From Gallionellaceae bacterium (GTDB taxonomy: Bacteria; Pseudomonadota; Gammaproteobacteria; Burkholderiales; Gallionellaceae): a stretch of DNA of 64,000 nucleotides. Of the stretch, positions 9,146-63,696 are shown piece by piece. Position 1 is the first letter of the stretch; each line of letters starts with the position of its first letter. Below the pieces are notes generated by a model. The model did not search any database, was not told the origin of the DNA, and saw only the letters and a program-made list of their open reading frames with translations. Where the stretch lies: positions 2,875 to 66,874 of the forward strand of contig JAYUTK010000001.1 of the NCBI GenBank assembly GCA_043755195.1, read 5' to 3'. A program made the position numbers and the translations under genes.

Positions 9146-9292
9146 GGGTAAATTTGTTCTCCAAATAATCGTAGGGTGGGCAGACAGCTTTATCGTCTGC
9201 CCACGCGGATTGGTAACCGCGTGGGCACAAAAACGTGCCCACCCTACATTTATTGATTTTAAACATAATTACCTGGAGAACAAATTTACCGT
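9146..9292. mobile_element. Nested MITE with 17-bp IR (GGTAAATTTGTTCTCCA) and 11-bp flanking direct repeat
   Basis: IR 9147-9163 and 9274-9290; direct repeat gggcgtagcca at 9135-9145 and 9293-9303. Confidence 0.7.
9171..9247. repeat. GTAG-type REP doublet (RAYT-family-like)
   Basis: gtagggtgggca ... tgcccaccctac with internal palindromes. Confidence 0.75.
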
Positions 9293-9392
9293 GGGCGTAG
9301 CCACTCTACGTTGACAATTAGACCCAATTACGTCATTCCTGCGAAGGTGGGAATGAGGTAATTCTGCCTAATGGAAAATTAGGGTTCAACCT

Positions 9393-9504
9393 CAATGCTG
9401 TTCACTTAGGCAAATTTCCGTTCGCCCTGAGCTTGTCGAAGGGCTCCAGTTGCGAAGCTAGTGGTTCGACAAGCTCACCACGAACGGTTAAGTGAACAGC
9501 ATTG
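9393..9504. mobile_element. 112-bp MITE, 16-bp TIR CAATGCTGTTCACTTA, 10-bp target duplication
   Basis: Perfect TIRs; TSD ggttcaacct at 9383-9392 and 9505-9514; identical to the reverse complement of 40102-40214 except one indel. Confidence 0.92.
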
Positions 9505-9642
9505 GGTTCAACCTTGCATCTCCAATTTTCAGCATTCAAGGTTGTGTGATGGCAACGAATTTCTCCATCTTTCCAAATAGTGGAAGGAAATATTAGCGGC
9601 GTTTATTTCGCGCAATAAAATTAGTTCAACAGCAAAAGTCAA

Positions 9643-10359: not shown

Positions 10360-10416
10360 AAAGCAGCATAGATCAAGTGCTGGTATTTGTCAGCGTAATA
10401 ATCCGCATTCTACGTT

Positions 10417-11340: not shown

Positions 11341-11349
11341 ACGCCTTCC

Positions 11350-12390: not shown

Positions 12391-12421
12391 CTTCTTCTCC
12401 TCTTAGATTGGTGGTTGGTGG

Positions 12422-13438
12422 TTAATTTTGTGGCGGACGCAAGGTGTTGATATACATAATGGCGGAATCAATCTGAATGTCGGATAGTGTGCCTCCCCAT
12501 GCCGGCATATTTTCAGAGCGGCCTACCGCTGCGCTTCCTTCAGTAATGATCGTTCTCATATACTCATTGGGCAGGCGACTTTTGGTGAGGTTGACTGGTT
12601 TGCTGGAGAGCGACTGTGCTAGCGCGCCATCACCCTGCCCCGTGTCGCCATGACAGGGAACACAATTATCCTTGAACACGGCAGCCCCTTCTTTTGCACT
12701 GGCTTTAGTCGAAAGGGGGGCAGAATCTTTCTGAACTGCTGGACGCAGAGTGTTCACGTAGAGAATAACCGAATCAATCTCTGCTTCTGTCAGCGCTCCG
12801 CCCCAAGTCGGCATTCTGGGCGAGCGGCCTACCGCATCACCACCCAAGGTAATGATGGTACGCAGATAGCTGTCTGGCGCGCGACTTTGGGTCAGGTTGA
12901 CTGGCTTGGGGTTCAAACGGGAAGCCATACGCCCGTCACCCATCGCCTCCATGCCGTGGCACAACGAGCAACGGCTTAGAAAAACAGTCCGTCCGATTTT
13001 GGCCGATGGCTTGGTTTCCTTTGCAGCACTCCATGCAATTTTGAGCGCGCCCTCGGTGTCCTTACGCAAAAATGAAACAAACATGGTCACCGAATCCATC
13101 TGGGTAACGGTAAGCTCATCGCCCCACGGTGGCATCATCGGGCTAATGTCGGCAAAGTGCGAGCCTTCTGTAATAGCACGGCGCAATGATTCATCATCAA
13201 AAGTAACCCGCGGCTCCAACAGATTAGTGGCAGGGTGTTCTTTCACCGATAGCGCCAGTGCGCCCTCGCCCATGCCATCGCTACCGTGGCACAGCGAGCA
13301 CCGTTCCTGAAATATAGCGGCACCATAGCCCATACAAGGCATCGCTTCTACGCCGCAATACTCCACCGAATCGGCCGACCCCTGCAACGGCAACGCGAGA
13401 AGTAATATACTTGAGAACCACCTACGGGCGTTCATCAA
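12422..13438 (-). CDS. Periplasmic triheme cytochrome c (three class-I domains)
   Basis: CSLCH, CSLCH, CVPCH, each followed by MP(P/T/A)WG Met ligand; signal peptide. Confidence 0.9.
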   Translation of the reverse strand: MMNARRWFSSILLLALPLQGSADSVEYCGVEAMPCMGYGAAIFQERCSLCHGSDGMGEGALALSVKEHPATNLLEPRVTFDDESLRRAITEGSHFADISPMMPPWGDELTVTQMDSVTMFVSFLRKDTEGALKIAWSAAKETKPSAKIGRTVFLSRCSLCHGMEAMGDGRMASRLNPKPVNLTQSRAPDSYLRTIITLGGDAVGRSPRMPTWGGALTEAEIDSVILYVNTLRPAVQKDSAPLSTKASAKEGAAVFKDNCVPCHGDTGQGDGALAQSLSSKPVNLTKSRLPNEYMRTIITEGSAAVGRSENMPAWGGTLSDIQIDSAIMYINTLRPPQN

Positions 13439-13756
13439 TTATTCCACCTGAACAGTTAACTGCATGGAGGGATGGATGGCGCACTCTATATCAATTTGCC
13501 CCGCCGTATCGAACACAATACTTTTTGATTCGCCATTGCCGTAGGAACCCAAGTCAAATGTCTTGCTCGCCGACAGACTAAAAATATTATGGAAGAAAGG
13601 GTCGGCATTGGTAAACTTTACCGAATCACCTTTTTTTAACTTAAGCTCCTTCACCGAAAATGTTTTGTTCTTTTGTATCAATTCAACTTCTGCTCCGACC
13701 GCATGCAACGATGCCAGCATGGCGACAGAGGCAGTGATAAAGGCGATACGTTTCAT
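13439..13756 (-). CDS. Amicyanin-like cupredoxin
   Basis: Signal peptide; type-1 Cu ligands HNIF ... CAIHPSM (C-x2-H-x2-M loop). Confidence 0.88.
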   Translation of the reverse strand: MKRIAFITASVAMLASLHAVGAEVELIQKNKTFSVKELKLKKGDSVKFTNADPFFHNIFSLSASKTFDLGSYGNGESKSIVFDTAGQIDIECAIHPSMQLTVQVE

Positions 13757-13785
13757 TTTTGCTCTCCTTATAGTGGGTTAAACAT

Positions 13786-15420
13786 TTAATATTTAAAATT
13801 CTTCATTGCTGAGACAAGCTCCTTTGCCGCCTTGTCTAGACTCTGAGATTCCCCGCCCAAGCGCGTTGCCTGATTGCGATTATCGCTGGCCAAGGTGGCG
13901 AGGTGGCTTGCTTCGCCAGCAATACTGGAAGTCGCTTTTTCCTGTTCGCTGACCAGGCTGACAATATCACGCATGGATTGACTAATGGCTTGGATGCGCT
14001 CGTTACTGACCTGAGTTTGATTGACGGCACCGCTCAATTGTTTAATGTTGCTTTCGGTCTTTTCAAGTACGTGATCTATGGCCGCCACCGTATCATTGAC
14101 GCTCTTGTCAATATTGACTACCAGCATGGATATTTCGTTAACGGCTGTACCAGTATTGCCTGCAAGTTTACGCACCTCGTCTGCCACCACAGCGAAACCG
14201 CGCCCTTGCTCGCCCGCCCGCGCCGCTTCAATGGCAGCATTCAATGCCAGCAAATTGGTCTGATCGGCAATGCCTTTAATAGTCTTGGTAATAGATTGAA
14301 TCTGGCCGGCCAAACTGGATAGTTCCCGGCTTTTTTCTGCGGTGCTTCGCATTTCTGTTTGGAAAGTCTGAAAGCTCTCTACCGTTTGCAGCAGCTCTTC
14401 ACTGGCTACCTGAGCAACGCTGGACGCGGCCGTTGCATTATCACCAGCCACACCCAGCAACTTGAATGCGTTAGATGAAGCATTGCTGAGCGAACCCGTT
14501 TGCGAATAGATCGAACCCGAACTTTCGTCCAAGCGCCCTGCTGCAGCACCCGCTCCCAACGCGCCTTCGGCAATAGCACTGGAATTATTAGAAACATCGC
14601 TTGCTGCATTCGCCACGCTTTGCACGATATTACGCAAGTTGCCGACGGTGAGGTTAATCGCTGTCTGAATTCTACCAATTTCATCCCGGCTGGCATTTTT
14701 CACATCTAAGGTAACAGTCAGGTCACCATTGGCTAACGCGACCATCGCACCTTCAATTTTACCCATGGCTCGACTCATGGAACGCGCCCATAACCATGCC
14801 ATTAACATACCTAAACCTGCGCCGAGAATACAGATCACGCCAAGAAACATCATTTGCTTCTTTGATTCCAGTTTGACGCGAGCCATTTCCGATAGCGCCA
14901 GTTCTTGGCTATGCTGAGTTACGCTCTGCGCCAAATCAGCAATGGTTTTAAATTCACTCGCAGCAACAGAATATAATTGCAGAGCACGTTCATCTTCATT
15001 GGCACGCCCTACACTGACGATTTCCAACTGCTTGGGGCGCAGTGCGGCCATCTTTTCCGCCAGTGATGTAACGTCACTATCATTTTCAAATACCTCTTTT
15101 AATGTGGCTAGGTGTTCGTCTATGCTGGCACCCGCACGTATCGAAGCAATAGCAGCAGCACGAATAGCCCCGGATTCATCAGCCGCAATCAGGGCTTGAA
15201 TATTACGATCCATTTCCACAATGCCGCGCTGTGTCGTGGTGGCGGATTCCACGCGGTGAGTGGCTTGGGTAGCAGCTTGCTCAGCCACACCGCTTTGATG
15301 CAGCATGATAAAAACGCTCAGCGCCAATATCAAGCTCATCACCGCAACCATCCCGCCAAACATGCTTAATATTTTGGTGCGCAAACGCATGTTGGAACAC
15401 ATGGACAAAATATTCTTCAT
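13786..15420 (-). CDS. Methyl-accepting chemotaxis protein (2 TM, periplasmic helical sensor, HAMP)
   Basis: [37 protein letters not shown] signalling hairpin; two hydrophobic helices. Confidence 0.96.
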
Positions 15421-15649
15421 AATTTACCTTTTTACGCTCCCCAGTCGTTCAAAGAAGCTCAATGAACCACATCATCGTATCTATGCAATCCAGGTCAAAT
15501 TTATTGTTAGTTTCAAACGTGATGACCAAGCGCAAGAGGCAGAGGCCTTAATGAGGTTAACGGCAAGAAGAAGGTAAACTTTAACAAAATAATCTATCAG
15601 GAATAGGTCTGGCTTAACCGAATGACACAACCAAACAACCCCCAATGAA

Positions 15650-15675
15650 AAACGGACACCCGAAGGTGTCCGTTT
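15650..15675 (-). terminator. Rho-independent terminator of the porin gene
   Basis: On the minus strand aaacggacacc-ttcg-ggtgtccgttt followed by Ts. Confidence 0.85.
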
Positions 15676-15712
15676 CCATGTTCCATTGTTCACCCCCTGT
15701 CGGGGGCAACGA

Positions 15713-16807
15713 TTAGAACGAGTGCTTCAGGCCGAACGACAAGACGGTCGGTGAATCACCATTATCAACATTTTCATCCGCTTGGGAGTACAAAGCATAC
15801 ACTGTGGTATTTTTGCTCATGCTGTGGTCATAACCGATCGAAATTTGTGTGTTGCCGTCATCAGTAATAGCATCTTTGGTATCACCCACTGTGGTGTAAG
15901 CCAGCTTGACCGCATTGCTGCTGTCGAGGTTGTACTTACCGGCCAGATAGATGTTGGTGTTTTCAGCTTCACCACCGGCTGCCTTATAGCTCAGCATTTC
16001 ATACACCAGATTCAGCGCAATCGCATCCATGGTGTAGCCTACGCCCAGCTTGGTGGCGCTGGCTTTGTCGCCAACTGCTGCGGCGGCAACCAATTTGCCA
16101 AACAATTTTCCATCCGCAGCCAAATCACCAGAGCCATTATCACCCGCTTTGGCATTTTGAATGGCCAAAGTCGCATAGATGTTATCCATGGTGTACATCG
16201 CAGCCAAAGAGGTAGCCGAACCCTTAGCGTCACCATTAGCAGCCGTCTCAGCGCCGAACACGGTGGCAACCGCTACCGACAAGCCACCCATATCCGGGCT
16301 TCTGTAGTTGAGCGTGTTGGAGGCACGCGCATCATGGCCAAAACCCATTCCTTTAAGGCCCAAGCCACCGCGATTGTCGGCAGCGGTCGTAGCAAATACG
16401 TCCAGACCGCGAGTTGCCGACTTGTACGGTGAGTCGTAATTACCCACTAACACGGTACCCATGCTGTCGCTTTTCAGACCGATGAAGGTGTTGCGTGTAG
16501 CCAGCCCGTTATTCGTGTCATCAACACCATCACTGTCTGTATCAATGCCGCTATCATCAGCAGAAATCTCGCTTTCAATTTGCCAGATCGCGGACATACC
16601 GCCACCCAAATCTTCCGCACCCTTGAAGCCCAGGTTCGACTCATTGCTGGTCAGTTCATTGGTTTTGGCAGCACCAACGGCAACGCCATCGTCGGCTCTG
16701 TCAAAGGACACATGCATTTTGCCATAGATGGTTGTTTCGGCCATGGCAACTGGGGCTACAAAAGCACCGGCTACTGCTAAAGCAATCAGACTTTTTTTCA
16801 TGTTCAT
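15713..16807 (-). CDS. Outer-membrane porin (betaproteobacterial general porin type)
   Basis: Signal peptide, TTIYGKMHVS, LGFKGAEDLGGG, AIWQIE, C-terminal GLKHSF. Confidence 0.95.
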   Translation of the reverse strand: MNMKKSLIALAVAGAFVAPVAMAETTIYGKMHVSFDRADDGVAVGAAKTNELTSNESNLGFKGAEDLGGGMSAIWQIESEISADDSGIDTDSDGVDDTNNGLATRNTFIGLKSDSMGTVLVGNYDSPYKSATRGLDVFATTAADNRGGLGLKGMGFGHDARASNTLNYRSPDMGGLSVAVATVFGAETAANGDAKGSATSLAAMYTMDNIYATLAIQNAKAGDNGSGDLAADGKLFGKLVAAAAVGDKASATKLGVGYTMDAIALNLVYEMLSYKAAGGEAENTNIYLAGKYNLDSSNAVKLAYTTVGDTKDAITDDGNTQISIGYDHSMSKNTTVYALYSQADENVDNGDSPTVLSFGLKHSF

Positions 16808-16916
16808 GCAGTTTCTCCTAAAATTAAAATATGGTCTTCACTGGAAAACCCCTCAAACAGTACCGCTTGAGAAGCAGGGCGCATTCTGTCAGTTGGCTTG
16901 GTAGCAAAGCAAGAGG

Positions 16917-16938
16917 GGTGTTGTATTTTTGCAACACC
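16917..16938. promoter_or_regulatory. Palindromic site upstream of the porin
   Basis: GGTGTTG-N8-CAACACC about 110 bp upstream of the start codon. Confidence 0.5.
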
Positions 16939-16986
16939 AGCATCCCCCTGTGCCAAAGTTTAGGATGCATCTAATAATTCAATTTG

Positions 16987-17154
16987 GTCATTCCGGCGCA
17001 GGCAGGAATCCAGTCATAAAAAATGCACCGCGAAGCGGACAAAACTAATAGGCATCTCTAAAAATTCGTCATTCCGGCCTGGCCGAAGGCCAGTTTATCC
17101 TGAGCCGGTCGAAGGGCCGGAATGACGCAATTTTTGCTAATGAACTATCTGGGT
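16987..17154. repeat. Composite of GTCATTCC-type REP hairpins and two different MITE ends
   Basis: gtcattccggcgcaggcaggaatcc; ggcatctctaaaaattc (17051); gtcattccggc...ccggaatgac (17068-17126); gctaatgaactatctgggt abutting the coq7 stop. Confidence 0.7.
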
Positions 17155-17781
17155 TCAAAGCCAATACGAAGTGCGCGTCATCACCCCAGAAGCCATTTTC
17201 ATCAGTTGTTTCACTGGCAGCGGCAGTTCCGCACCGCCTAACTCTGTTGCCATTTGCGCGTGCTGGGTTTCATCCACGACCATCTGGCTCACTACTGCCC
17301 GGCTTTTTTCATCCTGTAGCGGCAAGCGCGCCAGATGGCTTTGTAGGTGTTGCCCCACTTGCCGTTCTGTTTCCGCCAAAAAACCGAGATTCCATTTGTC
17401 GCCCAGCAATCCGGCCAGCGCGCCGATGGCCAGTGAGCTGCCGTACCACAGTGGATTGAGCGCGCTTAGGTGGCCGCCCAAATCGGCTACTCGGTGTGCG
17501 GTCCAGGCAAGATGATCAGTCTCCTCTTGCGCGGCCAAATGCAAGCGATCTTGCACCGCTGGGTCGCGTGCAGTCAGGGCCTGGCCTTGATACAACGCTT
17601 GTGCGCAAACTTCGCCGCTGTGATTAACCCGCATCAGCGCAGCCGCAAGTTTTTTCTCCGACTCGCTCAACACGGCATCGGGCAGACCGGCATCCGGCAA
17701 AGGTCGGTTGCTGTGTGCCTTACCCAGCAGGGTACGCAGGCCTCGGTCAAATTCGATAATTAATTTATCTGGAGTTAGCAT
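17155..17781 (-). CDS. coq7: Demethoxyubiquinone hydroxylase (Coq7)
   Basis: [42 protein letters not shown] diiron motifs. Confidence 0.95.
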
Positions 17782-17795
17782 AAAATTTCTTGGTA

Positions 17796-18530
17796 TTAAA
17801 ATTTATATCCGCGATGCACCGCGACCACGCCACCGGTCAGATTAAAATATTCAACTCGCTCCAATCCTGCATCAATCATCATAGTCTTGAGCTCTTCCTG
17901 CCCTGGGTGCATGCGGATGGATTCTGCCAGGTAGCGATAACTGTCTGCATCTTTGGCAATGAGTTGTCCGATTTTTGGCAGCAGTTTGAATGAATAGGTG
18001 TCGTATATCTTTTCCAGAGGCTTAGCTACTTTGGAAAATTCCAGCACGATCAATCGCCCACCCGGCTTGAGTACGCGCTGCATTTCGCGTAACGCGGCCT
18101 CTTTGTGCGTGACGTTACGCAGGCCGAAGGCAATGCTGACGCAATCAAAATAATTGTTTGGAAAAGGGAGGTGTTCGGCATCGCATTGTGTGACTGGCGT
18201 AGCAATGCCTGCGTCCAGCAAACGGTCACGCCCGACGCGCAGCATGGCGTTGTTGATGTCGGTCAGAATGACTTGGCCGCTGCTGCCCACTTTTTTCAGA
18301 AACAGCTTGGACAAATCGGCAGAGCCGCCCGCTACGTCCAGCACACGCTGTCCCTCGCGTACCCCGCTAACGCTGACTGCAAAGCGCTTCCACAGGCGAT
18401 GCAGCCCTGCCGACATGAGGTCGTTCATCACATCATATTTACCGGCGACCGAGGTGAACACGCCCGCGACGCGCTTGGCTTTTTCGTCTTCAGAAACGGT
18501 ATCAAAACCGAAATGGGTGGTTTGTTTCAT
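17796..18530 (-). CDS. ubiE: Ubiquinone/menaquinone C-methyltransferase
   Basis: [47 protein letters not shown]. Confidence 0.98.
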
Positions 18531-18582
18531 GGCAATATTTTACAGGCTTAATTGTCCAGGTTTAATTGTCCAGGCTTAATTA

Positions 18583-18981
18583 TTAAGTGTGGCACCCTTT
18601 CTTGAACGATGTTTGTGGATCATCATGCTGCGGTTCGCGACTCTCGCCTGCCTCTTCCAGTTGGTGCAAATAATCTTGCCACAATTCTTCTTGATGTTTA
18701 CCCAAACCGTGTAAATATTCCCAAGTGTAAAGACCCGTAGCGTGGGTGTCATCAAAGATTAGCCTGAGCGCGTAGTGGCCGACTGGCTCTACTTCGAGCA
18801 GCACGACATTTTTCTTGCCTATTTGCAATACCTCTTGCCCCGGCCCGTGCCCGCGCACTTCGGCGGAAGGCGAATGTATGCGCAGGAACTCAAAGGGTAG
18901 CGAGTAATTTTCGCCATCATCAAAAGCAATTTCGAGTTGCCGTGATTGTTTGTGTAGGGTGATTCCGGTTGGGATGGGCAT
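18583..18981 (-). CDS. DUF971 / gamma-butyrobetaine hydroxylase N-terminal-like protein
   Basis: EFLRIHSPSAEVRGHG...VGHYALRLIFDDTHATGLYTWEYL. Confidence 0.9.
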   Translation of the reverse strand: MPIPTGITLHKQSRQLEIAFDDGENYSLPFEFLRIHSPSAEVRGHGPGQEVLQIGKKNVVLLEVEPVGHYALRLIFDDTHATGLYTWEYLHGLGKHQEELWQDYLHQLEEAGESREPQHDDPQTSFKKGCHT

Positions 18982-18987
18982 GGGGAA

Positions 18988-19461
18988 TTAGAGAGCGCGA
19001 ATTTTGTTCAATAAAGCGGTGGTTGACCGCTGATGTAAAAATGGAATGCTGTGCACCGTGCCGCCCCAGCCTTGAACCTCTTGGGCACCTACGATATTTT
19101 CTGGCTTCCAGTCGCCGCCTTTCACTAACACATTCGGGCGGCAAGCCAGTATCAGCGACAAAGGGGTGTCTTCGTCGAACTCCACCACCATATCCACCGC
19201 TTGCAGCGCGGCCAGCACCGCCATGCGGTCTGCCAATGAATTGAGTGGTCGGTCATCGCCCTTGCCCAGGCGCTTGACCGAGGCATCGCTGTTCACCCCC
19301 ACCACCAGCGCCGCGCCCAATGCGCGCGCTTGCGCCAGATAGGTGACGTGGCCGCGATGCAACACATCAAAGCAGCCGTTAGTAAAAATCAGCGGACGTT
19401 GCAAGCTGGAAATGCGCTGCTTTAGTTCGGCGCGCGGGCAAATTTTTTGCTCAAAATCCAT
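18988..19461 (-). CDS. rfaE2: D-glycero-beta-D-manno-heptose 1-phosphate adenylyltransferase (RfaE domain II)
   Basis: [38 protein letters not shown]. Confidence 0.95.
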
Positions 19462-19467
19462 GACGGG

Positions 19468-20033
19468 TTAATCTAAATATTCAAACAGGGTCACCACGCG
19501 ATCCACAGACTTTGAATTGCGGGCAATTTCGGTCGCGGCATCGGCTTCCTTGTGATAGACCAGCCCCATCAAAAATACGACATTGGCTTCGGTCACCACT
19601 TTCACATGGTCGGGCTGAAATATTTTATTGCTGAGGAAGCGCAGCTTGACGTTGCTGGTGATGAGGCTGTCATTGCTCCGTGCAGTGAAGTTGCTCAGGG
19701 CAGATACCACCAGCTCATTGCTGATGAGCTTTATGTTTGGTTCTGAATTAACCAGGTTTGCCACCCCTGCTTTGTCGGCCTCGCTGGGAACTTCACCGGT
19801 AAGGAGCACTTGCCGATTAAAGCTGGTGACATTCACATGTACGCTGTCTTTATATTGGTCATAAATCAGCTTGGCGGCACGGGATTCAATGCGGGTATCT
19901 TCGAGGTAGCTGCCCGAAGTGCGGCGATCCGACCCCATCAACACTCCAGCACCTGCACCCACGACAACAATGGGCACACAGCCTTGTAATGCAGCGCACA
20001 GGGCAACAAATGCTAACCAATAACAAGCGCGCA

Positions 20034-20034
<1 letters not shown>
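19468..20034 (-). CDS. dolP: Dual-BON lipoprotein (DolP/YraP)
   Basis: Lipobox LQGC, DRRTSG, VNVTSFNRQVLLTGEV; start 20034 overlaps the gmhA stop (TAATG). Confidence 0.88.
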
Positions 20035-20681
<647 letters not shown>

Positions 20682-20692
20682 TCAGCACCTCC

Positions 20693-21037
20693 TTAGTTGG
20701 TAAAAGCATTCTTAACCCATTCTGGAGTCGCGTTTTCCAAGGTGTCGAGTAACACTGCGTCAAAGCGGCAAGGCGGCGTATAAGCCAGTGTGCCCAAGTA
20801 ATGCTGGGCAGTGCGTATTAAGCGGCCTTGTTTGGCGGCATCAATACTGGCTGCGGCACCGCCAAAATTTTTGTGGTGGCGCAAGCGTACTTCGGCGAAT
20901 ACCAGCGTGTCCGCATCCTGCAAAATCAAATCAATTTCGCCATAGCGGCAACGGTAATTTTGGTGCAGTAGTTTTAGCCCGCGGCCTTGCAAAAATTGTG
21001 CTGCCAATTGTTCGGCCTGTGCACCGCGTGTGCTCAT
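20693..21037 (-). CDS. yraN: YraN (UPF0102) family protein
   Basis: GAQAEQLA, NYRCRYGEIDLI, FAEVRLR, CRFDAV. Confidence 0.93.
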   Translation of the reverse strand: MSTRGAQAEQLAAQFLQGRGLKLLHQNYRCRYGEIDLILQDADTLVFAEVRLRHHKNFGGAAASIDAAKQGRLIRTAQHYLGTLAYTPPCRFDAVLLDTLENATPEWVKNAFTN

Positions 21038-42300: not shown

Positions 42301-42543
42301 CCTTGACACACAGTTATCTTGTAATTCCATTTCCAGTTAAATCCGGCGACAATTCCCTCCCCTTGAAGGGGAAGGTGTAGTGGCGTTAAATTCGCCAGAT
42401 TACAGTGCCAAATGCCGCGCAAATTAGTACCAAATGCGTCGCGGCGTTACAGGCGCGAGAAAAATTTTAGCGCGCCGCATATGTTTGATATGTAAGCGTT
42501 AAAATTTTTGGAACAACGCAGCATCGCGACGGAGTTTGGATTT

Positions 42544-42790
42544 TTAGAGGTGCCCTAATGCCGCAACAATTTGTTTCACTGCTGCCTCCGGCGAAAACAG
42601 CTTGGCCGACAAGGTACGGCAATGGGCGGACACATTTTTTCCAGAGCTAATCTCGTCTGCAAGTTCCCGCGCCAGACGCTGCAAGGTATCAACCGAGTGA
42701 TCCGTGCAGACTCGCCCAACACCTTCTGTTCGTATCAACGCTGCCAGATCATTGCTTGGATTAATGCTCCCCAGCACAGGCAAGCCGGCC
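42544..42790 (-). pseudogene. 3' remnant of a WbuB-like GT4 gene (copy B)
   Basis: YMQAGLPVLGSINPSNDLAALIRTEGVGRVCTDHSVDTLQRLA; closely matches about 44020-44260. Confidence 0.85.
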
Positions 42791-42839
42791 TGCATATATA
42801 AGCTTGCAATTACGGGAACAGGAATCCATAATTGCAAGC

Positions 42840-44018
42840 ATGATAAATCGCTTTCTTTACACCAAGCTATCAGACGCAATCTCACGATCGCCTGCGGTAG
42901 CTTTGATTGGCCCGCGGCAAGTCGGAAAAACCACGCTGGCGCTGGAAGTCGGCAAAAACCATAATGCGCTCTACCTCGATCTCGAATCCGAACAAGATCG
43001 CGCCAAGCTCGCCGAACCGGAGCTATATCTTGCTGACCACCAAGACAAACTGATCATCCTGGATGAAATTCACCGCGCGCCCAATCTCTTTCCGGTTTTG
43101 CGAGGCCTGATAGACCAAGGGCGACGTGCTGGCCGTAAAACCGGCCAATACCTGTTGCTCGGCTCTGCCTCCCTTGACCTGCTCAAGCAATCCGGCGAAA
43201 CATTGGCAGGGCGCATCGCCTACCTGGAACTCGCTCCGTTCAACCTATTGGAAACACAAGCACTACCATCGGATGACCTCTGGGTACGAGGTGGTTTTCC
43301 GGAAAGTCTGCTGGCCGCCAGTGCAACCTGGAGCCTGCGCTGGCGGCAGGATTTCATTCGCACCTATCTCGAACGCGACATCCCTCAGTTTGGACCGCGC
43401 ATAGCCGCCGAAACCCTGCGACGCTTCTGGGGTATGCTCGCCCACTATCAGGGCGGCCTGCTCAACACTGCCCAGTTTGCCCGCAATCTGGGTGTGGATG
43501 CCAAAACCGCTGCAAGTTATCTCGATTTACTCGTTGACCTGCTGCTGGTGCGGCGCCTGCCACCATGGCACGCCAATCTGGGCAAGCGGTTGGTCAAATC
43601 GCCCAAGGTGTATGTACGCGACAGCGGCTTGGTACATGCCCTGCTCAACATTCCCGACAAGGAAACCCTGCTTGCCCACCCAGTCGTGGGACAAAGCTGG
43701 GAATGCTTCATAATCGAAAACCTGATCACCTCCGCACCGGATGGTGTGCAAGCGTATTTCTATCGCAGCAACGGCGGCGCCGAGGTTGATCTGCTACTGG
43801 CTTGGCCAAGCGGAGAACTCTGGGCCATCGAAATCAAACGCAGCCTCACCCCCAAGCTGGAACGCGGCTTTCACGCTGCCTGCACCGACCTCAACCCAAC
43901 CCGCAAGTTTGTCGTTTATCCAGGCACGGAACGCTACCGCATCGCAGCAGACATCGAAGCGATTTCCCCGGCCTGCTTGGCCCTGGAATTAAATCCAGCT
44001 ATTAGGGTGCTGCAATAA
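42840..44018 (+). CDS. AAA_14/DUF4143 ATP-binding protein
   Basis: LIGPRQVGKTTL, ILDEIH, LLGSAS, RGGFPE, KRLVKSPKVYVRDSG, EVDLL...AIEIK. Confidence 0.92.
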   Translation: MINRFLYTKLSDAISRSPAVALIGPRQVGKTTLALEVGKNHNALYLDLESEQDRAKLAEPELYLADHQDKLIILDEIHRAPNLFPVLRGLIDQGRRAGRKTGQYLLLGSASLDLLKQSGETLAGRIAYLELAPFNLLETQALPSDDLWVRGGFPESLLAASATWSLRWRQDFIRTYLERDIPQFGPRIAAETLRRFWGMLAHYQGGLLNTAQFARNLGVDAKTAASYLDLLVDLLLVRRLPPWHANLGKRLVKSPKVYVRDSGLVHALLNIPDKETLLAHPVVGQSWECFIIENLITSAPDGVQAYFYRSNGGAEVDLLLAWPSGELWAIEIKRSLTPKLERGFHAACTDLNPTRKFVVYPGTERYRIAADIEAISPACLALELNPAIRVLQ

Positions 44019-44400
44019 GCCCGCTGCAATTTGTTTTACTGCCGCCGCTGGCGAAAACAGCTTTGCCGACAAGGCACGGCAACGGGCGGATACACTTTTT
44101 CCAGATCTAATCTCGTCTGCAAGTTCCACCACCAGACGCTGCAAGGTATCCACCGAGTGATCCGTGCAGACTCGCCCAACACCTTCTGTTCGTATCAACG
44201 CTGCCAGATCATTGCCCGGATTGATGCTCGCCAGCACGGGCAAGCCTGATTGCATATACGAAAGGAACTTGCCGGGTATGCTGTGGGTTTTGTGGCGCGG
44301 ATCGAGCGCAACAATGCCCACATGGCACTGGCACTGGGCATATAAACCGGGAATTTCCGCAGGATCGATCTCGTCATGGAATACCACGTTATCCAGCGGG
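43989..44400 (-). pseudogene. 3' remnant of a WbuB-like GT4 gene (copy A)
   Basis: HVGIVALDPRHKTHSIPGKFLSYMQSGLPVLASINPGND; 5' part missing, break at a REP half. Confidence 0.85.
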
Positions 44401-57514: not shown

Positions 57515-58450
57515 TTAAGGCATCACCATCTTAATAAATTCGGAATAATCGCGAATATAGTCGGCCGCATCATAGTGATGCGAAGCAAACACCAGCAGTA
57601 CCGCATCTTTTGAATATTTGTATTGCACCCCCCAAACCATCGGTGGCAGGTAAATTCCTTTGTCAGGGGAATCCAGCAACACTTCTGTGCGATTAACGCC
57701 ATCATCCGCCAAGACTGCACAATTTCCACGCACGCAAATTAAAAATTGATGGCAGACACGATGCGTATGTTCACCCCGCGTCTCTTTGCTTGGAACATCA
57801 AACACCATGAAGTAACGCTTTGGAACGAAAGGTATGTGTTGTTCAAATTCAGCCACCGTGAGACTGCCACGCAGGTCGGGTATCAGTGGGAATTTATGTA
57901 TTGTGACACCTCGTACAACTGTGTCGTCGGAGAATGGTGGTTTGCGTTCATCTTTCGGTAGTTGCTGTTTAATACTTACTTCCAGCTTGGTGTTGGTGTA
58001 ACCCACAATACGCGCCGGATTGCCCTCCACAATTGCATTGGGTGGCACAGAGCGTGTCACGACTGCTCCGGCTCCAATCATCGCACCTTCAGCCACCGTC
58101 ACGCCCGGCAAGATGGTGGCATTTGCGCCAATAGAGGCACCAGCCTTGATAGTAGTTTGCAAGAACTGCTCAGGGTACACCTTGGAACGCGGCATCAGAT
58201 CATTGGTGAAAGTGACGTTTGGCCCGATAAAGACGTTATCTTCTATCCGCACACCATTCCAAAGCTGCACGCCGCTTTTAACTGTGACATTATCGCCAAT
58301 CACCACATCGTTTTCAATCAATACCTGTGCGCAGATGTTGCAGTTCGCACCAATTTTGGCACCTGCAAACACCACGCAAAATTGCCAGATGCGTGTACCT
58401 TCTCCAATGTCATTGCTTTGCACATCGGCTAATGGGTGAAATTTACTCAT
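57515..58450 (-). CDS. WxcM-like bifunctional hexapeptide acyltransferase / FdtA-type 3,4-ketoisomerase
   Basis: [24 protein letters not shown]; C-terminal [19 protein letters not shown] cupin. Confidence 0.92.
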
Positions 58451-58599
58451 TAATTAACCCCATATTGTCGTTTAAAACCATCCCTTTTTTCTCACCAAAT
58501 TTATGACGTAACCAGCTTTTTTTCATATTGTTAACAATTTCTCTGCCATAAGCACATCAAGCCGTAGATAGCACAAATCATTACCCGCAGAAAATTAAC

Positions 58600-58740
58600 T
58601 GCCCCAAGCTCATCCAGGCGCAGGCAGGTGATGTCAGATGTCCAGACCTGATTGGGGGAAAGATCGGGTTGGGGCCAGAATGTTTTGCTGGCCACATCAA
58701 ATCGGAGCACTTCGGGAAGGCGATCATGTGTCGTGCGCTC
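58600..58740 (-). pseudogene. IS3-family transposase core remnant
   Basis: PNQVWTSDITCLR on the minus strand, matching the rve N-terminal motif; no full ORF. Confidence 0.55.
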
Positions 58741-58913
58741 ATGTTTTTTTACTGTGGCATTTTATACATAGCGACATAAATTTACTGCGCGATTCGGGGG
58801 TGGGGTCGGGCAGTTCTCGCGATCCTCACATACGAATGTGTATGCTCCGGGCGCTATGTGCTGGCCTCCCCCGCCCGCAAACCGCTCGCTACGATTTCTG
58901 TCGCCATGTATCA

Positions 58914-59393
58914 TCAAGCCCAGCCCCGCCTCTCGATTTCGGCAATCATTTTGCTGGCTGTTGCGATGAGTGCAGGCACAAAATAATGGCCGCTTTGCAG
59001 GGCATTGCTCAGTATGACTGGGTCTTCAACGTATTCATGGATCATTTGGTTTCTAAGATTGCGCATGGTCATCCATTCATCAGCAGACTTGAGCAGCCCC
59101 AAGCGTTCGGCTCGGTCAAGATTATCAATGGCGGCAGAAGACTTTTCACCCAAGGCGGCGATAAGTAGTGGCAATAATTTGTCGCCCACTGTGTCTTGCA
59201 GGCGGCCAAATCTGCCTACAAAGGCTTCCACTCGTTCTGCCAGGTCTGGGTCTTCTTCGAGCCGGGTTGCTTGCTCCAGGGTAAACAAGCCTTCAAATAG
59301 TCGCTGATCTGTGGTGGTGAGGTGCTGGCATTCTTTGCGCACGACTCTTACCAAAAATTGCAGGCGCAATAGGATTTTTGGCTCCACTGTCAT
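58914..59393 (-). CDS. HEPN RNase toxin (HepT-like)
   Basis: RFGRLQDTVG, RNQMIHEY (RX4HXY); 4-nt overlap with the MNT gene. Confidence 0.85.
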   Translation of the reverse strand: MTVEPKILLRLQFLVRVVRKECQHLTTTDQRLFEGLFTLEQATRLEEDPDLAERVEAFVGRFGRLQDTVGDKLLPLLIAALGEKSSAAIDNLDRAERLGLLKSADEWMTMRNLRNQMIHEYVEDPVILSNALQSGHYFVPALIATASKMIAEIERRGWA

Positions 59394-59689
59394 AACAATT
59401 TCCCTTCTTTGAATGCGATGTCATGAATGGGCAGGCGCATTAGGTTGGGTGCGCTGAGCAGTACATCTACTTTGCGCCCGTGCATAACGCGCGATACTTG
59501 GGCGGACATTTGTGCGGAGATAAGTGCAGGGTTATCCACGGGTTCCGGCAATTCAAGCATGATGTCAATATCTCCACCGTGTGCTGCGTCATCAAGCCTG
59601 GAGCCGAATATTCGCACGCGGGTTTGAGCCCCCGCTACTTGATACGCGAGCTGTCGAATAGTTTTGATTTGATAGTCTGTCAGGCGCAT
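59390..59689 (-). CDS. Minimal nucleotidyltransferase antitoxin (MntA-like)
   Basis: FGSRLDDAAHGGDIDI (GSX10DXD), RKVDV. Confidence 0.9.
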   Translation of the reverse strand: MRLTDYQIKTIRQLAYQVAGAQTRVRIFGSRLDDAAHGGDIDIMLELPEPVDNPALISAQMSAQVSRVMHGRKVDVLLSAPNLMRLPIHDIAFKEGKLL

Positions 59690-59849
59690 GGTTTTCTTGT
59701 GCCAAAGGACTCTACCACGCTTTTGGTGATTTGCTCTTGAGATAGGATCAATCGCATTTGGCTATATTCATCCGTAAACAGACATTTGAATAAACCGTTG
59801 CGTTTGTTGTACTGCCCACGCGGCATCCTCCTCTTCGACTGAATCACCT

Positions 59850-59935
59850 CTGCATCGGCTATTTTCAGCCCCTTTCCAATGCAGTACGGCAGTTGATAGC
59901 CACATAACGTGACGGCTTTGCTGATGTCGGCCAGC
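59850..59935 (-). pseudogene. Second, diverged 3' remnant of a WbpP/TviC epimerase gene
   Basis: ADISKAVTLCGYQLPYCIGKGLKIA aligns with ADISKAATLLGYNPTHHIGEGLKVA at about 61040-61120. Confidence 0.7.
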
Positions 59936-59962
59936 AAGACGGCGGTTGCCTTGTCATTCGAC

Positions 59963-61000
59963 TCAATCAATCTCATTCTCTTCCCATCCCTGCAATCGTT
60001 CCCGAATTTCTTCCTCGCTTGGCAGCAGGTGCTGGTAGGCTGCCGGAAGATGTGAGGTAAGACTGTAGGTGGCGATGCCGATGGGCTGTGTAGTAGTTTT
60101 CAGCGCATATTCGACTACGGTTTTTTTCTTGCTCTTGCAAATGATGATGCCGATGGCGTCGTTTTCGTCCGGCAGCTTAACTTGCTCATTGAGCGCCACG
60201 AGGTAGAACTCCATTTTGCCTTTATGCTCGGGCTGGAATTCACCGATTTTGAGTTCCACAGCGATCAAGCTTTTCAGCGCCCGGTGGTATAGCAGCAAAT
60301 CAATGTAGTAGTCGTTGCCTTCCACGGTCAGCCGGTATTGACTGCCCACAAAGGTGAAGTGCGGCCCCATTTCGGTAAGGAATCTCTGAACATTGGCGAT
60401 CAGGGCAGTTTCGAGTTCGCGCTCCTCGTGTGCGTCGGAGAGTTCGAGAAAGTCGAACGTGTAGTGATCTTTGACCGCCAGTTTGGCTTGCGCGGCGATG
60501 GCTTGCGGCAGGGCGTTGTCGAAACTGGTCTGGTTGAGCAGGTATTTTTCGTAGGTCTGGTTGTCGATCTGGTGCTCCAGTACGCGGCGTGTCCAGCCAA
60601 AGCGGGCAGTGGCGCGCAGGTAGAACTCGCGCTGTAGTGGGTTTGGGCAGCGGTCGAGGATTAGGGTGTTTTTGGTCCAGGCGATTTCTGCAGCCAGTGG
60701 CTGCAGAATTGGCTGCTCCTTGTATTCTCGGTAAAACGTGCGCATATACCAAAGATTGCGCCCGGAGAAGCCGCTCTTTTCGCCGAATTCGGCACGCAGA
60801 TCGGCAGATAGCCGCTCGACAACGGCCTTGCCCCAGCCTTCTGTTTCCTGACGTTCCTCGATCAGTTTGCCAATGTCCCAGTAGAGGGCAATCAGCTCTT
60901 TGTTGACCGCACGCAGCGCGGCATATTGCGCCGTGTGTATGCGGGTTTTGAGTTCGGTCAACAGCGTTCCGTAACCAGTGCCCTTCACTACATCACTCAT
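59963..61000 (-). CDS. DUF1016/YhcG PD-(D/E)XK nuclease-family protein
   Basis: VNKELIALYWDIG, GFSGRNLWYMRTF, KDHYTFDFL, YYIDLLLYHR, VELKIGEFQPEHKGKM, IGIIICK. Confidence 0.93.
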   Translation of the reverse strand: MSDVVKGTGYGTLLTELKTRIHTAQYAALRAVNKELIALYWDIGKLIEERQETEGWGKAVVERLSADLRAEFGEKSGFSGRNLWYMRTFYREYKEQPILQPLAAEIAWTKNTLILDRCPNPLQREFYLRATARFGWTRRVLEHQIDNQTYEKYLLNQTSFDNALPQAIAAQAKLAVKDHYTFDFLELSDAHEERELETALIANVQRFLTEMGPHFTFVGSQYRLTVEGNDYYIDLLLYHRALKSLIAVELKIGEFQPEHKGKMEFYLVALNEQVKLPDENDAIGIIICKSKKKTVVEYALKTTTQPIGIATYSLTSHLPAAYQHLLPSEEEIRERLQGWEENEID

Positions 61001-61190
61001 GCATTGCCTTGTTGCGTTAGGTGTTGTGCATACCCATCCATCGCCACTTTCAGTCCTTCGCCAATGTGATGGGTGGGATTGTAGCCTAGCAGCGTGGCTG
61101 CTTTGCTGATGTCGGCAAACGAGTGACGCACATTACCTGCACAAAAATCACGATACACGGGTTTCGCGCCTTGCATTTGGGCGAACTCTG
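60997..61190 (-). pseudogene. 3' remnant of a WbpP/TviC UDP-GlcNAc 4-epimerase gene
   Basis: AKPVYRDFCAGNVRHSFADISKAATLLGY...GEGLKVAM; upstream part replaced at an IS-like end. Confidence 0.85.
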
Positions 61191-61207
61191 AATTTTTAGA
61201 GATGCCC
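61190..61207. repeat. IS/MITE-like terminal sequence at the epimerase breakpoint
   Basis: gaatttttagagatgccc-tta; same family as 1-18 and 17051-17067. Confidence 0.65.
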
Positions 61208-61283
61208 TTATGCTTAATTTTTTGGTTAATCAATTGCGATTGCCTTGCTTGGCTGAGGTATCATTTTTTCCATTTTAAAAAAA

Positions 61284-62564
61284 TTACAGCCTCCACAATT
61301 TATGCCCCGCAGCTTTAACAACCTCAGGTTGATAGGCAGATTTAATATCAACGAACAAGCCGCCCTGCTTCAGCTTAGTCAATAATTGAGTGGCAGGTCG
61401 GCTGCTATATTCAGTATGCGAAACAGCGGCCACAATGGCGTCCGCCTGATCTGGCAGTGCGTTCCATTCCGTCAACGCTATACCGTATTCGCGCATCGCC
61501 TCGTCTGGTGCAGCTAGCGGATCGTGTACGCTGACATCACAACCAAACTCTTGCAGCTCTTTCACCAAATCAGCAACCTTGCTGTTACGGAGGTCGGGAC
61601 AATTTTCTTTGAAAGTGAGGCCGAGCACGATAACTTTGCAACCTTTGACAGCCACGCCTGACTGAATGATTTGCTTCACGGTTTGCTGCGCCACATAGGC
61701 GGCCATGCCATCATTGATGCGGCGACCAGCCAAGATGACTTGCGGGTGGTATCCCAGCATGTCTGCTTTGTGGGTCAGGTAATACGGATCAACGCCGATG
61801 CAATGTCCGCCAACCAGGCCTGGGCGGAATGGCAGGAAATTCCACTTGGTGCCCGCTGCTTTTAATACTTCCAGCGTGTCAATGCCAATTTTGTTGAAGA
61901 TAATTGCAAGCTCGTTCATCAGGGCGATGTTCAGGTCGCGCTGGGTGTTTTCAATGACTTTGGCGGCTTCAGCAACCTTGATGCTGCTGGCCGGATAAAC
62001 GCCTGCGGTGATGATCGATCCATACACTTCGCTGATAGTTTTGAGCGTTTCCGGTGTGTCGCCCGATACAATTTTGACGATCTTGGTAAGGGTGCGCTCT
62101 TTGTCGCCGGGGTTGATACGCTCAGGACTGTAACCCACAAAGAAATCTTGCTTCCACTTCAGACCGGAATGTTTTTCAATTAGCGGAATACATATTTCTT
62201 CGGTCGCGCCTGGATAGACGGTAGATTCGTAAACCACAATCGCGCCGCGCTTGATGTGCTTGCCGACGATTTCTGAACTCTTGATGAGTGGCGTGAAGTC
62301 CGGTTGATGAGCATCATCCACCGGCGTAGGAACGGCAATCACAATAAAGTCCGCATTGCTCAAACCCCGCGGGTCGGTGTGGCAGCTAAGTTGGGTTGCG
62401 GCACGCAATTCTTCCGTGCTGACTTCGCCGGTTGGGTCAACGAAATTGCGATACGCCGCGATTTTCTCTGCCGAAAGATCAATGCCAACGGTAGGATATT
62501 TTTTTCCAAACTCTACTGCCAGCGGCAAACCAACATAGCCAAGACCAATGACTGCTATTTCCAT
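61284..62564 (-). CDS. UDP-N-acetylhexosamine 6-dehydrogenase (WbpO/TviB family)
   Basis: IGLGYVGLPLA, YESTVYPG, YSPERINPGD, EAAKVIEN, GGHCIGVDPYY, GLTFKENCPDLRNS. Confidence 0.95.
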   Translation of the reverse strand: MEIAVIGLGYVGLPLAVEFGKKYPTVGIDLSAEKIAAYRNFVDPTGEVSTEELRAATQLSCHTDPRGLSNADFIVIAVPTPVDDAHQPDFTPLIKSSEIVGKHIKRGAIVVYESTVYPGATEEICIPLIEKHSGLKWKQDFFVGYSPERINPGDKERTLTKIVKIVSGDTPETLKTISEVYGSIITAGVYPASSIKVAEAAKVIENTQRDLNIALMNELAIIFNKIGIDTLEVLKAAGTKWNFLPFRPGLVGGHCIGVDPYYLTHKADMLGYHPQVILAGRRINDGMAAYVAQQTVKQIIQSGVAVKGCKVIVLGLTFKENCPDLRNSKVADLVKELQEFGCDVSVHDPLAAPDEAMREYGIALTEWNALPDQADAIVAAVSHTEYSSRPATQLLTKLKQGGLFVDIKSAYQPEVVKAAGHKLWRL

Positions 62565-62608
62565 TTTTTATCTTTCCAAGCTTCTATTATTAAACTCACG
62601 TCATGCCC

Positions 62609-62728
62609 CAATACTGTTCGCTTAGCACCTATCCGTTCGCCCTGAGCTTGTCGAAGGGGGTATGAATTGGCGGCTGGTGGTTCGACAAGCTCACCACGAA
62701 CGGTTAAGCAGTTAAGCGAACAGTATTA
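62609..62728. mobile_element. 120-bp MITE variant (TIR CAATACTGTTCGCTTA)
   Basis: TIR caatactgttcgctta / taagcgaacagtatta; 10-bp flanks cgtcatgccc and cgtcatgctc; same REP-pair interior. Confidence 0.85.
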
Positions 62729-62730
62729 CG

Positions 62731-63696
62731 TCATGCTCTCCATTTGAAGGCTATGCGCAACGCCTGCATACGCTCGGCTTGTTCGGGTTGTTGCTGTGCG
62801 CGCAACAAGCCCTCACGCACGAATGCCAAAAGTATAGCGAGGAAGAATGCCACCAGTGTCGCCAGCAGCACAATCACACTGCGCTTGGGTTTGGATTTCT
62901 TTTCTGGCGGTGTCGCCTGATCCAGCACTTGTATCAGCGAGGAGTTTTTGGCTTCGTCCAGCTTGGCCATTTCGAATTGCTTGGCAAGGATCTCCCATAC
63001 CGCTTCCTGATATTTCATGTTGCGCACAGCATCCATATATTGCAAGCTGGTATTGGATGTTTTGTCTAAGCGTGCTTCAGCATCGGTCAGCTTGTCTTTG
63101 GCTTGTTTCATTTGCTGCTCAAAAAATATTCGTTTCTGCGATGCATCGGTAAGCGCGAAGTTTTGCATCAGCTTGGCAAGTTCTTCGACAAAGGCATTCG
63201 CCATGTCAGCCGCGCGTTTCGGGTCAAGATCGCTTACTTCGACGGTGATTACCCCATCTTTTCCAGCGGTAAAAGTTGAGTTGTTCTCGAGTGCTTTCAG
63301 CGTATCGGTCAGCGTCTTCGCTTTATAAAGCTGCTGCAAATCGAAGCGGTTGGCGATTTTTCCCATGAGGGTGCGGCTCTTGAGCATGGCGAGATAGATA
63401 TCGGCTGGATTTTTGATGCCCATCGCTCCGCCCGCCAATCCGGCAAGCCCACCCAGCTGCCCCAACAATGCGCTGGCTGAAGACTGACTTTGCTGTGGCG
63501 GTAGAATCCGGGCCGTGCCGGTATAGACATTGGACATAAGCAGTGTCACTCCAACTGCCAGCAGCGCAGCCCCCAGCGTGACCTTCAGTATCATCGCCTT
63601 GTGTTTTGCAAGGACGATCAGCAAGTCGAGCAGGTTGATTTCGTCATCGTCCGGAATCGCTTGCAAAGGGGGGGGCAAGGTTTGGTTCTCAGTCAT
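62731..63696 (-). CDS. wzz: Wzz-type chain-length regulator
   Basis: DEINLLDLL, two TM, YTGTARILPP, VLDQATPPEKKSKPKR. Confidence 0.9.
   Translation of the reverse strand: MTENQTLPPPLQAIPDDDEINLLDLLIVLAKHKAMILKVTLGAALLAVGVTLLMSNVYTGTARILPPQQSQSSASALLGQLGGLAGLAGGAMGIKNPADIYLAMLKSRTLMGKIANRFDLQQLYKAKTLTDTLKALENNSTFTAGKDGVITVEVSDLDPKRAADMANAFVEELAKLMQNFALTDASQKRIFFEQQMKQAKDKLTDAEARLDKTSNTSLQYMDAVRNMKYQEAVWEILAKQFEMAKLDEAKNSSLIQVLDQATPPEKKSKPKRSVIVLLATLVAFFLAILLAFVREGLLRAQQQPEQAERMQALRIAFKWRA

Follow-up and report, generated by a model that had tools for sequence, protein, structure and literature searches.

A YhcG/DUF1016 nuclease gene between two orphan wbpP epimerase tails in a Gallionellaceae polysaccharide cluster

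Many hotspots of defence genes have neither an integrase nor a transposase, and accounts of how genes enter such hotspots usually go no further than recombination in the flanking core genes. The locus described here lies in a 64,000-nt stretch of the genome of a Gallionellaceae bacterium (contig JAYUTK010000001.1; the whole stretch is called the window). In it, an intact gene for a YhcG/DUF1016 nuclease stands between two orphan 3' ends, or tails, of wbpP, the gene for a UDP-GlcNAc 4-epimerase of the WbpP/TviC type. The locus is probably the scar of a homology-anchored capture of cargo genes by host recombination, and the same layout recurs around other cargo and other host genes.

Several described systems come close to this locus. 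Homology-facilitated illegitimate recombination (HFIR) has been described for bacteria capable of natural transformation (de Vries and Wackernagel 2002; Prudhomme et al. 2002; Meier and Wackernagel 2003; cited in PMC5361080; also PMC3240628), and a Vibrio cholerae model of orphan immunity arrays proposes an event of this type (PMC5361080). As for the cargo, the relevant passages call YhcG/DUF1016 a predicted nuclease and give it no function established by experiment (PMC4316617, PMC9881135). DUF1016/YhcG and RhuM genes are noted in type I restriction-modification operons, between hsdM and hsdS (PMC9881135), and a DUF1016-type gene is noted beside an epimerase gene at the edge of the capsule locus of Neisseria animalis (PMC6202450). 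The passages of these two reports that deal with such loci note the presence of the genes and make no mention of duplicated host-gene ends. Searches of the literature on the DUF1016 family, and on defence hotspots and illegitimate recombination, found no description of the footprint.

Anatomy of the locus and a donor-type arrangement in a relative

The sequencing runs point to an uncultured betaproteobacterium of the iron-oxidiser type, from sediment. The locus is housed in a surface-polysaccharide (O-antigen/exopolysaccharide) cluster on the minus strand. Coordinates are positions in the window, and the genes of the tail-nuclease-tail locus are all on the minus strand. In cluster order the features are:

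62731-63696, minus strand: wzz, first in cluster order
61284-62564, minus strand: wbpO/tviB-like UDP-GlcNAc 6-dehydrogenase gene, the conserved gene 5' of the lost epimerase gene
61165-61209, strand not assigned: dispersed-repeat terminus at the point of wbpP truncation, placed by contig depth and loose contig ends
60997-61176, minus strand: tail 1, the last 59 codons of the WbpP/TviC-type UDP-GlcNAc 4-epimerase gene, an orphan
59963-61000, minus strand: the cargo, an intact gene for a YhcG/DUF1016 PD-(D/E)XK nuclease of 345 aa
59935-59962, minus strand: 28-nt cargo trailer, which with the first bases of tail 2 forms a 36-nt stretch common to the relative L002 (below)
59857-59934, minus strand: tail 2, the displaced and diverged 3' end of a second wbpP allele, 26 codons, LADISKAVTLCGYQLPYCIGKGLKIA
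59680-59976, minus strand: open reading frame (ORF) of 98 aa that spans the cargo trailer, tail 2 and spacer
59690-59856: 167-nt spacer from tail 2 to the MNT start
59390-59689, minus strand: MNT nucleotidyltransferase gene
58914-59393, minus strand: HEPN gene

How secure is the identity of the two tails? Tail 1, as part of a 78-aa ORF (60997-61233), matches residues 302-350 of Pseudomonas aeruginosa WbpP (PDB 1sb8, 352 aa) with an E value of 1.3e-11. A hidden Markov model built from the C-termini of 119 WbpP homologues, and run on the 1911 six-frame ORFs of the window, matches it at E 5.7e-22. The wbpP homology begins at ~61176-61177, not at 61190 or 61233, in agreement with the 59-aa ORF of the gene caller. 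At the other end, the stop codon of tail 1 (60997-60999) and the ATG of the DUF1016 gene (60998-61000) overlap in an ATGA. The orphan keeps a 59-codon ORF that has its own ATG (MQGAKPVYRDF...) and runs into this overlap. Were this ORF translated, the nuclease gene could still be translationally coupled to it.

Tail 2 starts 28 nt past the DUF1016 stop, within the 98-aa ORF. It shares 16 of its 26 residues with tail 1 (BLASTP) and is the top non-self match of tail 1 when the whole window is searched in six frames by tblastn (E 5e-6). The similarity is also present in the DNA, where 24 nt match at 92% (E 2e-4) and a 17-nt exact core, GCTTTGCTGATGTCGGC, occurs in both tails at the ADISKA codons (59915-59931 and 61100-61116). 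Nucleotide identity is 65% over 78 nt and 76% over a 42-nt repeat, and a weaker similarity goes on past a 1-nt indel to ~59842. Against the WbpP profile tail 2 is borderline (E 0.05, 10.2 bits), although it is second-best of the 1911 ORFs and aligns to the correct profile positions, 31-56. Its identity is secured by the pairwise match, the DNA match and a remnant at the same place in L002, and not by the profile. Over the 26 codons the two tails differ with dN 0.27, dS ~2 (saturated) and dN/dS ~0.14.

The first-pass annotation had proposed a nuclease between two epimerase tails, and this is what the sequence holds: tail 1, an intact DUF1016 gene, and tail 2 in the right strand and register. 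Its coupling of tail 1 to the DUF1016 start by the ATGA overlap also stands, as does its 3' end for a tail at 60997-61190, while the 5' limit has to be moved inwards. For its second tail it had staked the case beforehand on a significant profile alignment of 59850-59935; that result was the borderline one given above, with the pairwise and DNA matches significant. Neither tail is a working epimerase gene and both are orphans. A full-length short-chain dehydrogenase/reductase would have a Rossmann fold and a catalytic YxxxK, and only 59 and 26 codons are left here. Both tail-nuclease junctions are spanned, without differences, by contigs from sequencing runs on several samples that belong to two studies.

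The cargo itself is well preserved. Its Pfam matches to DUF1016_N (E 3.2e-47, 160.5 bits, gathering score 32.8) and YhcG_C (E 3.4e-59, 199.6 bits, gathering score 32.5) are strong, and PADLOC assigns the gene to PDC-S02 (6e-145, 481 bits). The catalytic D...(D/E)xK motif is present as YID(234)LL...AVE(249)LK(251), with D234 and K251 conserved in at least 97% of 152 relatives. Judged from these matches, the DUF1016 gene is a candidate anti-phage gene, probably with a role in defence or conflict.

The first-pass annotation had suggested that wbpP and yhcG might adjoin in potential donor genomes, and such an adjacency was found in L002, a locus of the Gallionellaceae metagenome-assembled genome (MAG) SCUU01000130. 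L002 contains, in order, wbpO, a full-length wbpP, the ATGA junction, a DUF1016 gene, the trailer, a repeat element, a tail remnant and the next sugar gene. Its DUF1016 protein is 96% identical to that of the window, and tail 1 is ~87% identical in nucleotides to the tail of its full-length wbpP. The same 36 nt follow the DUF1016 gene, and the tail remnant reads GERLKVAMEWY. Across the block at window 61175-59924 the nucleotide identity to L002 is 89.3%, whereas the adjoining wbpO is only 74.5% identical, which argues that tail 1 moves as one piece with the nuclease gene and that both entered these genomes more recently than wbpO. A search of genome contigs with 21 nt of the trailer returned L002 only. 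Exact-protein look-ups matched only contigs of the window's own organism and yielded no precursor arrangement. The wbpP gene of L002 (4781-6004) has two in-frame insertions of 20 and 34 residues, rich in Gly, Glu and Pro, relative to homologues of 342 aa; these resemble in-frame repeat insertions in the amidotransferase gene of the window.

What became of the body of wbpP in the window? Similarity to L002 wbpP sets in sharply at ~61177, and between the wbpO stop (61284) and 61176 there is nothing but a repeat-bearing spacer of 107 nt (61177-61283), which stands in for ~283 wbpP codons. Summed contig depth in the source metagenomes reaches 7,500-21,000 at 61136-61279 against ~15 alongside, that is, 500-1400 times the flanks, and loose contig ends lie at 61165 and 61207-61212 in three runs. 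The depth places a motif in this spacer, GAATTTTTAGAGATGCCCTT, in a very abundant repeat family. The motif recurs, whole or in part, at 3-20, 17051-17067 (minus strand) and 42540-42561. The last of these copies lies just beyond the stop codon that ends the downstream one of two glycosyltransferase tails, in the first case of the layout in the window (below). The position 61177, the left edge of the block shared with L002, was considered as a crossover and rejected, since the depth spike and loose ends mark it as a truncation of wbpP by the dispersed repeat. The wbpP body would thus have been lost at this repeat, later than the capture of the cargo. The epimerase step of this cluster is genetically lost.

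The surroundings of the locus are those of a polysaccharide cluster. The wbpO-like gene matches three UDPG_MGDP_dh Pfam domains; among NCBIfam models it scores 512 bits with TviB, under the equivalog cut-off, and 383 bits with the NDP-sugar dehydrogenase subfamily. After the MNT-HEPN pair the cluster goes on with an FdtA/hexapeptide acyltransferase, a GNAT, a DegT aminotransferase, a flippase and glycosyltransferases. The 98-aa ORF has no Pfam, NCBIfam, PADLOC or PDB match, and its exact protein occurs solely on contigs of the same organism; it is probably a chance reading frame and not a gene. The 167-nt spacer has no match in any library or in the fetched loci of relatives.

Two further kinds of element were looked for and rejected. 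An integrase island was set aside as no recombinase is found among the Pfam-scanned genes of the locus; cluster-strand ORFs of at least 90 aa between 46087 and 63696 contain no integrase or transposase by Pfam. A structured RNA or att-like element was likewise set aside, as Rfam gave no family over threshold in 58400-62800 and only two sub-threshold chance matches, and no convincing inverted repeats bracket the nuclease cargo. Promoter and terminator scans of the locus gave nothing informative.

Recurrence of the layout around unrelated cargo

Is this layout peculiar to one locus? Relatives of the two cargo families, DUF1016 and MNT-HEPN, were surveyed by comparing the two 500-nt flanks of the cargo with each other by tblastx (E <=1e-5, same orientation), with intervals shifted along the same loci as controls. 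Direct similarity between the flanks was found at 25 of 127 DUF1016 loci, as against 6 of the 333 control intervals (odds ratio 13.4, p 2.6e-10). For MNT-HEPN the corresponding counts are 13/71 and 1/129 (odds ratio 28.7, p 6.6e-6). The flanking repeats are 40-310 bp long and 73-97% identical. Duplicated ends include the tails of hsdM in type I restriction operons, the tails of ugd, fcl, rfbC, DegT and wzm, and the heads of gmd, neuB and wbpP. The host genes of the duplicated ends are conserved genes that border variable regions.

The window contains another example, its first case, with an ATPase gene of the DUF4143/AAA_14 type (42804-44018, plus strand) placed between two glycosyltransferase tails and on the strand opposite to theirs. 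These tails (42544-42885 and 43989-44387) are 89.7% identical over 234 nt with dN/dS 0.31, and both reach the gene stop. Genes for the DUF4143 ATPase and for RhuM/HigBA carry the same flanking duplications without a DUF1016 nuclease. Since the same footprint accompanies biochemically unrelated cargo, the cargo does not make the footprint; the nuclease is cargo, not engine. The first-pass annotation had read the repeated tail-cargo-tail layout as support for a general mechanism. Its generality is upheld by the enrichment around DUF1016 and MNT-HEPN, and the mechanism is probably one of host recombination and not the nuclease's doing.

Some loci contain more than one unit. In L088 the order is ugd, RhuM, ugd tail, DUF1016, ugd tail. 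In L085 (135-5298), and with the same layout in L086, there are three copies of the first ~25 codons of wbpP, which precede, in turn, a DUF1016 fragment with HigBA, an unidentified two-gene cargo with DUF1016, and a full-length wbpP. L085 and L086 are cases of serial accretion at a gene head.

Where do the paired copies come from? In eight pairs (L076, L016, L008, L083, L063, L102, L088 and L070) the copies have a dN/dS of 0.05-0.20, and no pair is identical, the maximum being 96.8% (over 308 bp, in loci of the L076 type). As the differences are mostly synonymous, the copies diverged as working genes in different genomes, one the donor's and one the recipient's. The paired copies are thus alleles from two genomes, not target-site duplications. 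In eleven pairs that were inspected, the repeats mostly end at, or within a few bases of, the stop (tails) or the start (heads) of the host gene, where the homology between donor and recipient stops.

Such loci show mosaic patterns of identity when compared with each other. Within each of two hsdM groups, loci share cargo at 98-99.9% identity, while the upstream gene bodies are 83-93% and the downstream copies 89-90% identical, and hsdS is unrelated. In the L134 group, identity switches on the left in the upstream gene or the first repeat, and on the right in the second repeat. In the L013 group the cargo is 98-99% identical, and the upstream gene, the second repeat and the downstream genes have lower identity or are unrelated. 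At L134, L138 and L151, which have the order hsdM-DUF1016-hsdS, the downstream copy of the hsdM tail overlaps the hsdS start. The duplicated hsdM tail may thereby preserve the translation start region of hsdS, a possible selective reason for its retention.

The nuclease gene of the window belongs to a lineage found at several host genes. DUF1016 genes that are 88-91% identical in nucleotides, from Desulfoarculaceae MAGs, Hydrogenophilales MAGs and unassigned metagenome contigs, share only the ORF with the window (61000-~59950). This one lineage (>=88% nucleotide identity) is found at a wbpP tail, a wbpP head, a ugd tail, a gmd head, a neuB head, and inside another DUF1016 gene. The last setting applies to four loci, in which the gene interrupts the N-terminal domain of that other DUF1016 gene next to wzm/wzt, the genes for an O-antigen ABC transporter:

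L001, 5935-7481: DUF1016 gene within a DUF1016 gene
L007, 1588-3419: DUF1016 gene within a DUF1016 gene
L082, 2303-4320: DUF1016 gene within a DUF1016 gene
L084, 1578-3199: DUF1016 gene within a DUF1016 gene

In these four loci one candidate defence nuclease gene displaced another.

The second cargo of the locus, the MNT-HEPN pair, has only weak Pfam matches to NTP_transf_2 and HepT-like, under the gathering scores. PADLOC assigns the MNT gene to PDC-S09, and the GS...DxD motif of MNT (FGSRLDDAAHGGDIDI) and the RNQMIH (Rx4H) motif of HEPN can be read in the translations. The two genes overlap by 4 nt. Homology to the loci of relatives (L162-L241) is as tight to the ORFs as in the nuclease gene: it covers 59695-58912, from ~6 nt before the MNT ATG to ~2 nt beyond the HEPN stop, at 75-85% nucleotide identity in the best 40 alignments listed. 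The pair is a gene-sized unit without terminal features that is found in many different neighbourhoods.

Probable homology-anchored capture and its rivals

How might the locus have arisen? The anatomy, the donor-type order of genes in L002, the enrichment, the allelic state of the paired copies and the mosaic patterns of identity are shown; the order of events, the dependence on RecA and the route by which the DNA entered are inferred. The events would be as follows. A segment from a foreign strain would have carried the 3' end of that strain's own wbpP allele, followed directly by the YhcG/DUF1016 gene. On one side the segment would have recombined with the resident wbpP by homologous recombination of the RecA type. 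Its other end would have joined inside the resident wbpP at the L-A-D-I-S-K-A codons, either by an illegitimate (homology-facilitated) joint or by a crossover in a second tail copy already present in the donor. The epimerase gene would thereby have kept a complete end supplied by the donor (tail 1), and at least the last 26 codons of the resident (tail 2) would have been pushed behind the cargo, without function. The MNT-HEPN pair would have arrived separately, after the capture of tail 1 and DUF1016. The body of wbpP would then have been lost up to the terminus of the dispersed repeat, so that two tails remained beside wbpO.

HFIR would be the simplest first event, with its anchor in a conserved gene and the other end in the recipient's copy of that gene. 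Joints further downstream would delete a neighbouring gene and would be removed by selection. Once formed, a tail-cargo-tail unit would carry the sequence of one conserved gene on both sides, and could be copied by a double crossover into any genome with that gene, irrespective of the genes downstream.

Several points weigh against this capture by homology. The window and L002 share the right-hand junction, so that they may descend from one ancestral event and not from two independent insertions. No empty-site allele, that is, a wbpP without an insert, was found for the lineage, and the donor and recipient copies are not directly assignable. Tail 2 is short, and its profile match is by itself not significant. 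The illegitimate joint is a presumed one, the donor sequence being known only as far as the 36-nt trailer. DUF1016 ORFs of 88-92% nucleotide identity adjoin at least six host genes, so gene-end duplications arise often, and a rare process such as illegitimate recombination fits this frequency less comfortably. Most of the loci are on MAG contigs, with the pattern present in at least one isolate (Limnohabitans sp. DM1, L048).

Units of the tail-cargo-tail and head-cargo-head type may form a distinct class of mobile cassettes without a recombinase, in which the duplicated gene end serves as portable homology arms. This proposal is tentative. If it were true, the arms would aim the cargo at the end of the gene in any genome, where the gene would stay intact and the downstream content would be irrelevant. 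Small defence and toxin-antitoxin cargo of the DUF1016/PDC-S02, MNT-HEPN, RhuM and DUF4143 ATPase types would use such arms to spread from one polysaccharide locus or type I restriction-modification operon to another. The downstream copy would be refreshed by crossovers with the working tails of recipients, and its low dN/dS would thus be explained.

A close variant of homology-anchored capture, which differs in the intermediate, is an integration of the Campbell type. A small circle with one wbpP tail and the DUF1016 gene would have integrated by a single crossover in the resident tail, leaving two hybrid tails, and it could loop out again by recombination between them. This would account for the direct repeats of equal length that flank the cargo in many loci and for the exact core common to both tails, and the low dN/dS of the allelic copies would fit equally well. 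Such a circle is nevertheless unlikely. The contigs of four runs, in which rare forms would be hidden, contain neither a joint that skips the cargo (59935-61100) nor a circle junction. At the identity given above for their 78 nt, the two tails would be a poor substrate for looping out by RecA, and the origin of the first circle is left unexplained.

Could the nuclease have driven its own spread by selfish homing? DUF1016 would then cleave host-gene alleles that lack the cargo, close to the gene's end, and repair from the cargo-bearing allele would copy the nuclease gene, with the tails as arms. The cargo is by its motifs an apparently active PD-(D/E)XK nuclease, its ORF moves as a unit with homology boundaries tight to the ORF, and it sits inside another DUF1016 gene in four loci, all of which speak for homing. 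However, the MNT-HEPN, DUF4143 ATPase and RhuM/HigBA genes carry the same duplications without a nuclease, and a single nuclease lineage is found at the heads and tails of at least six host genes with no fixed target site. Homing is thus very unlikely to be the cause.

It is still harder to see the copies as products of a transposition-like insertion with a long target-site duplication, or of template switching during replication, followed by decay of the redundant copy. The copies do lie directly beside the cargo and are of equal length. Yet no pair is identical, the differences are overwhelmingly synonymous (dN/dS 0.05-0.31), unlike those of a decaying redundant copy, the duplications end at gene boundaries, and there are no terminal repeats and no transposase among the Pfam-scanned genes; an origin of this kind is extremely improbable. 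Finally, that tail 2 should resemble an epimerase end by chance, with no meaning in the layout, can hardly be credited: short as the match is, at 26 codons with a borderline profile score, its tblastn and DNA matches are significant, its strand, register and position are correct, an independent remnant lies at the same place in L002, and the layout is strongly enriched elsewhere.

Relation to known systems

The footprint is concrete and countable. About one fifth of the DUF1016 or MNT-HEPN insertions have a donor and a recipient copy of the neighbour's end, and the footprint marks the positions of the crossovers. If duplicated ends serve as arms for transfer, this would explain how defence cargo with ORF-tight boundaries hops between distantly related bacteria, why it favours conserved sugar-nucleotide genes and hsdM as landing places, and why these loci are littered with short ORFs annotated as hypothetical, the 98-aa one among them. 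For annotation, short ORFs of this kind are best read as scars.

Of the described systems, HFIR, as far as it is outlined in the reports cited above, resembles the locus in that foreign DNA is anchored by homology on one side, without a dedicated recombinase, and is inserted beside a conserved gene. It differs in that the evidence here is comparative, and in that the other joint falls within the anchor gene of the recipient, which leaves the gene end present twice.

The orphan 3' modules and immunity arrays of Rhs, contact-dependent inhibition (CDI) and type VI secretion (T6SS) systems are alike in that a conserved part with a new module recombines and the old 3' part is displaced (PMC5361080). 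Repeated events there lead to arrays, to which L088 and L085 are comparable. In those systems, however, what is displaced still works as a toxin tip or immunity gene, whereas here it is a sugar-nucleotide or methylase gene end that has no function, and the incoming gene is an unrelated one of the defence type.

Integrase islands at the 3' end of a tRNA or protein gene have the same order of parts: the gene body, a tail supplied by the element, the cargo, and the original tail as a direct repeat. Unlike such islands, the locus has no integrase or excisionase among its Pfam-scanned genes, the lengths and positions of the repeats vary by locus, and one and the same cargo is found at many host genes.

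The minimal mobile elements of Neisseria, which Saunders and Snyder are said to have described in 2002, are reportedly single-gene cassettes without mobility genes that are exchanged through homologous recombination in the conserved genes on either side. Like the loci studied here, they are mosaic, with near-identical cargo in diverged backgrounds. Their cassettes lie between two different conserved genes, whereas here both arms are the end of one gene, so that insertion would not depend on a conserved gene order.

Measured against these systems, the locus itself is probably an ordinary recombination scar with a dead epimerase gene and a probably functional nuclease of the defence type. The recurrent tail-cargo-tail footprint is a variant of known recombination-driven gene flow, in which a role as a recombinase-free cassette is possible.

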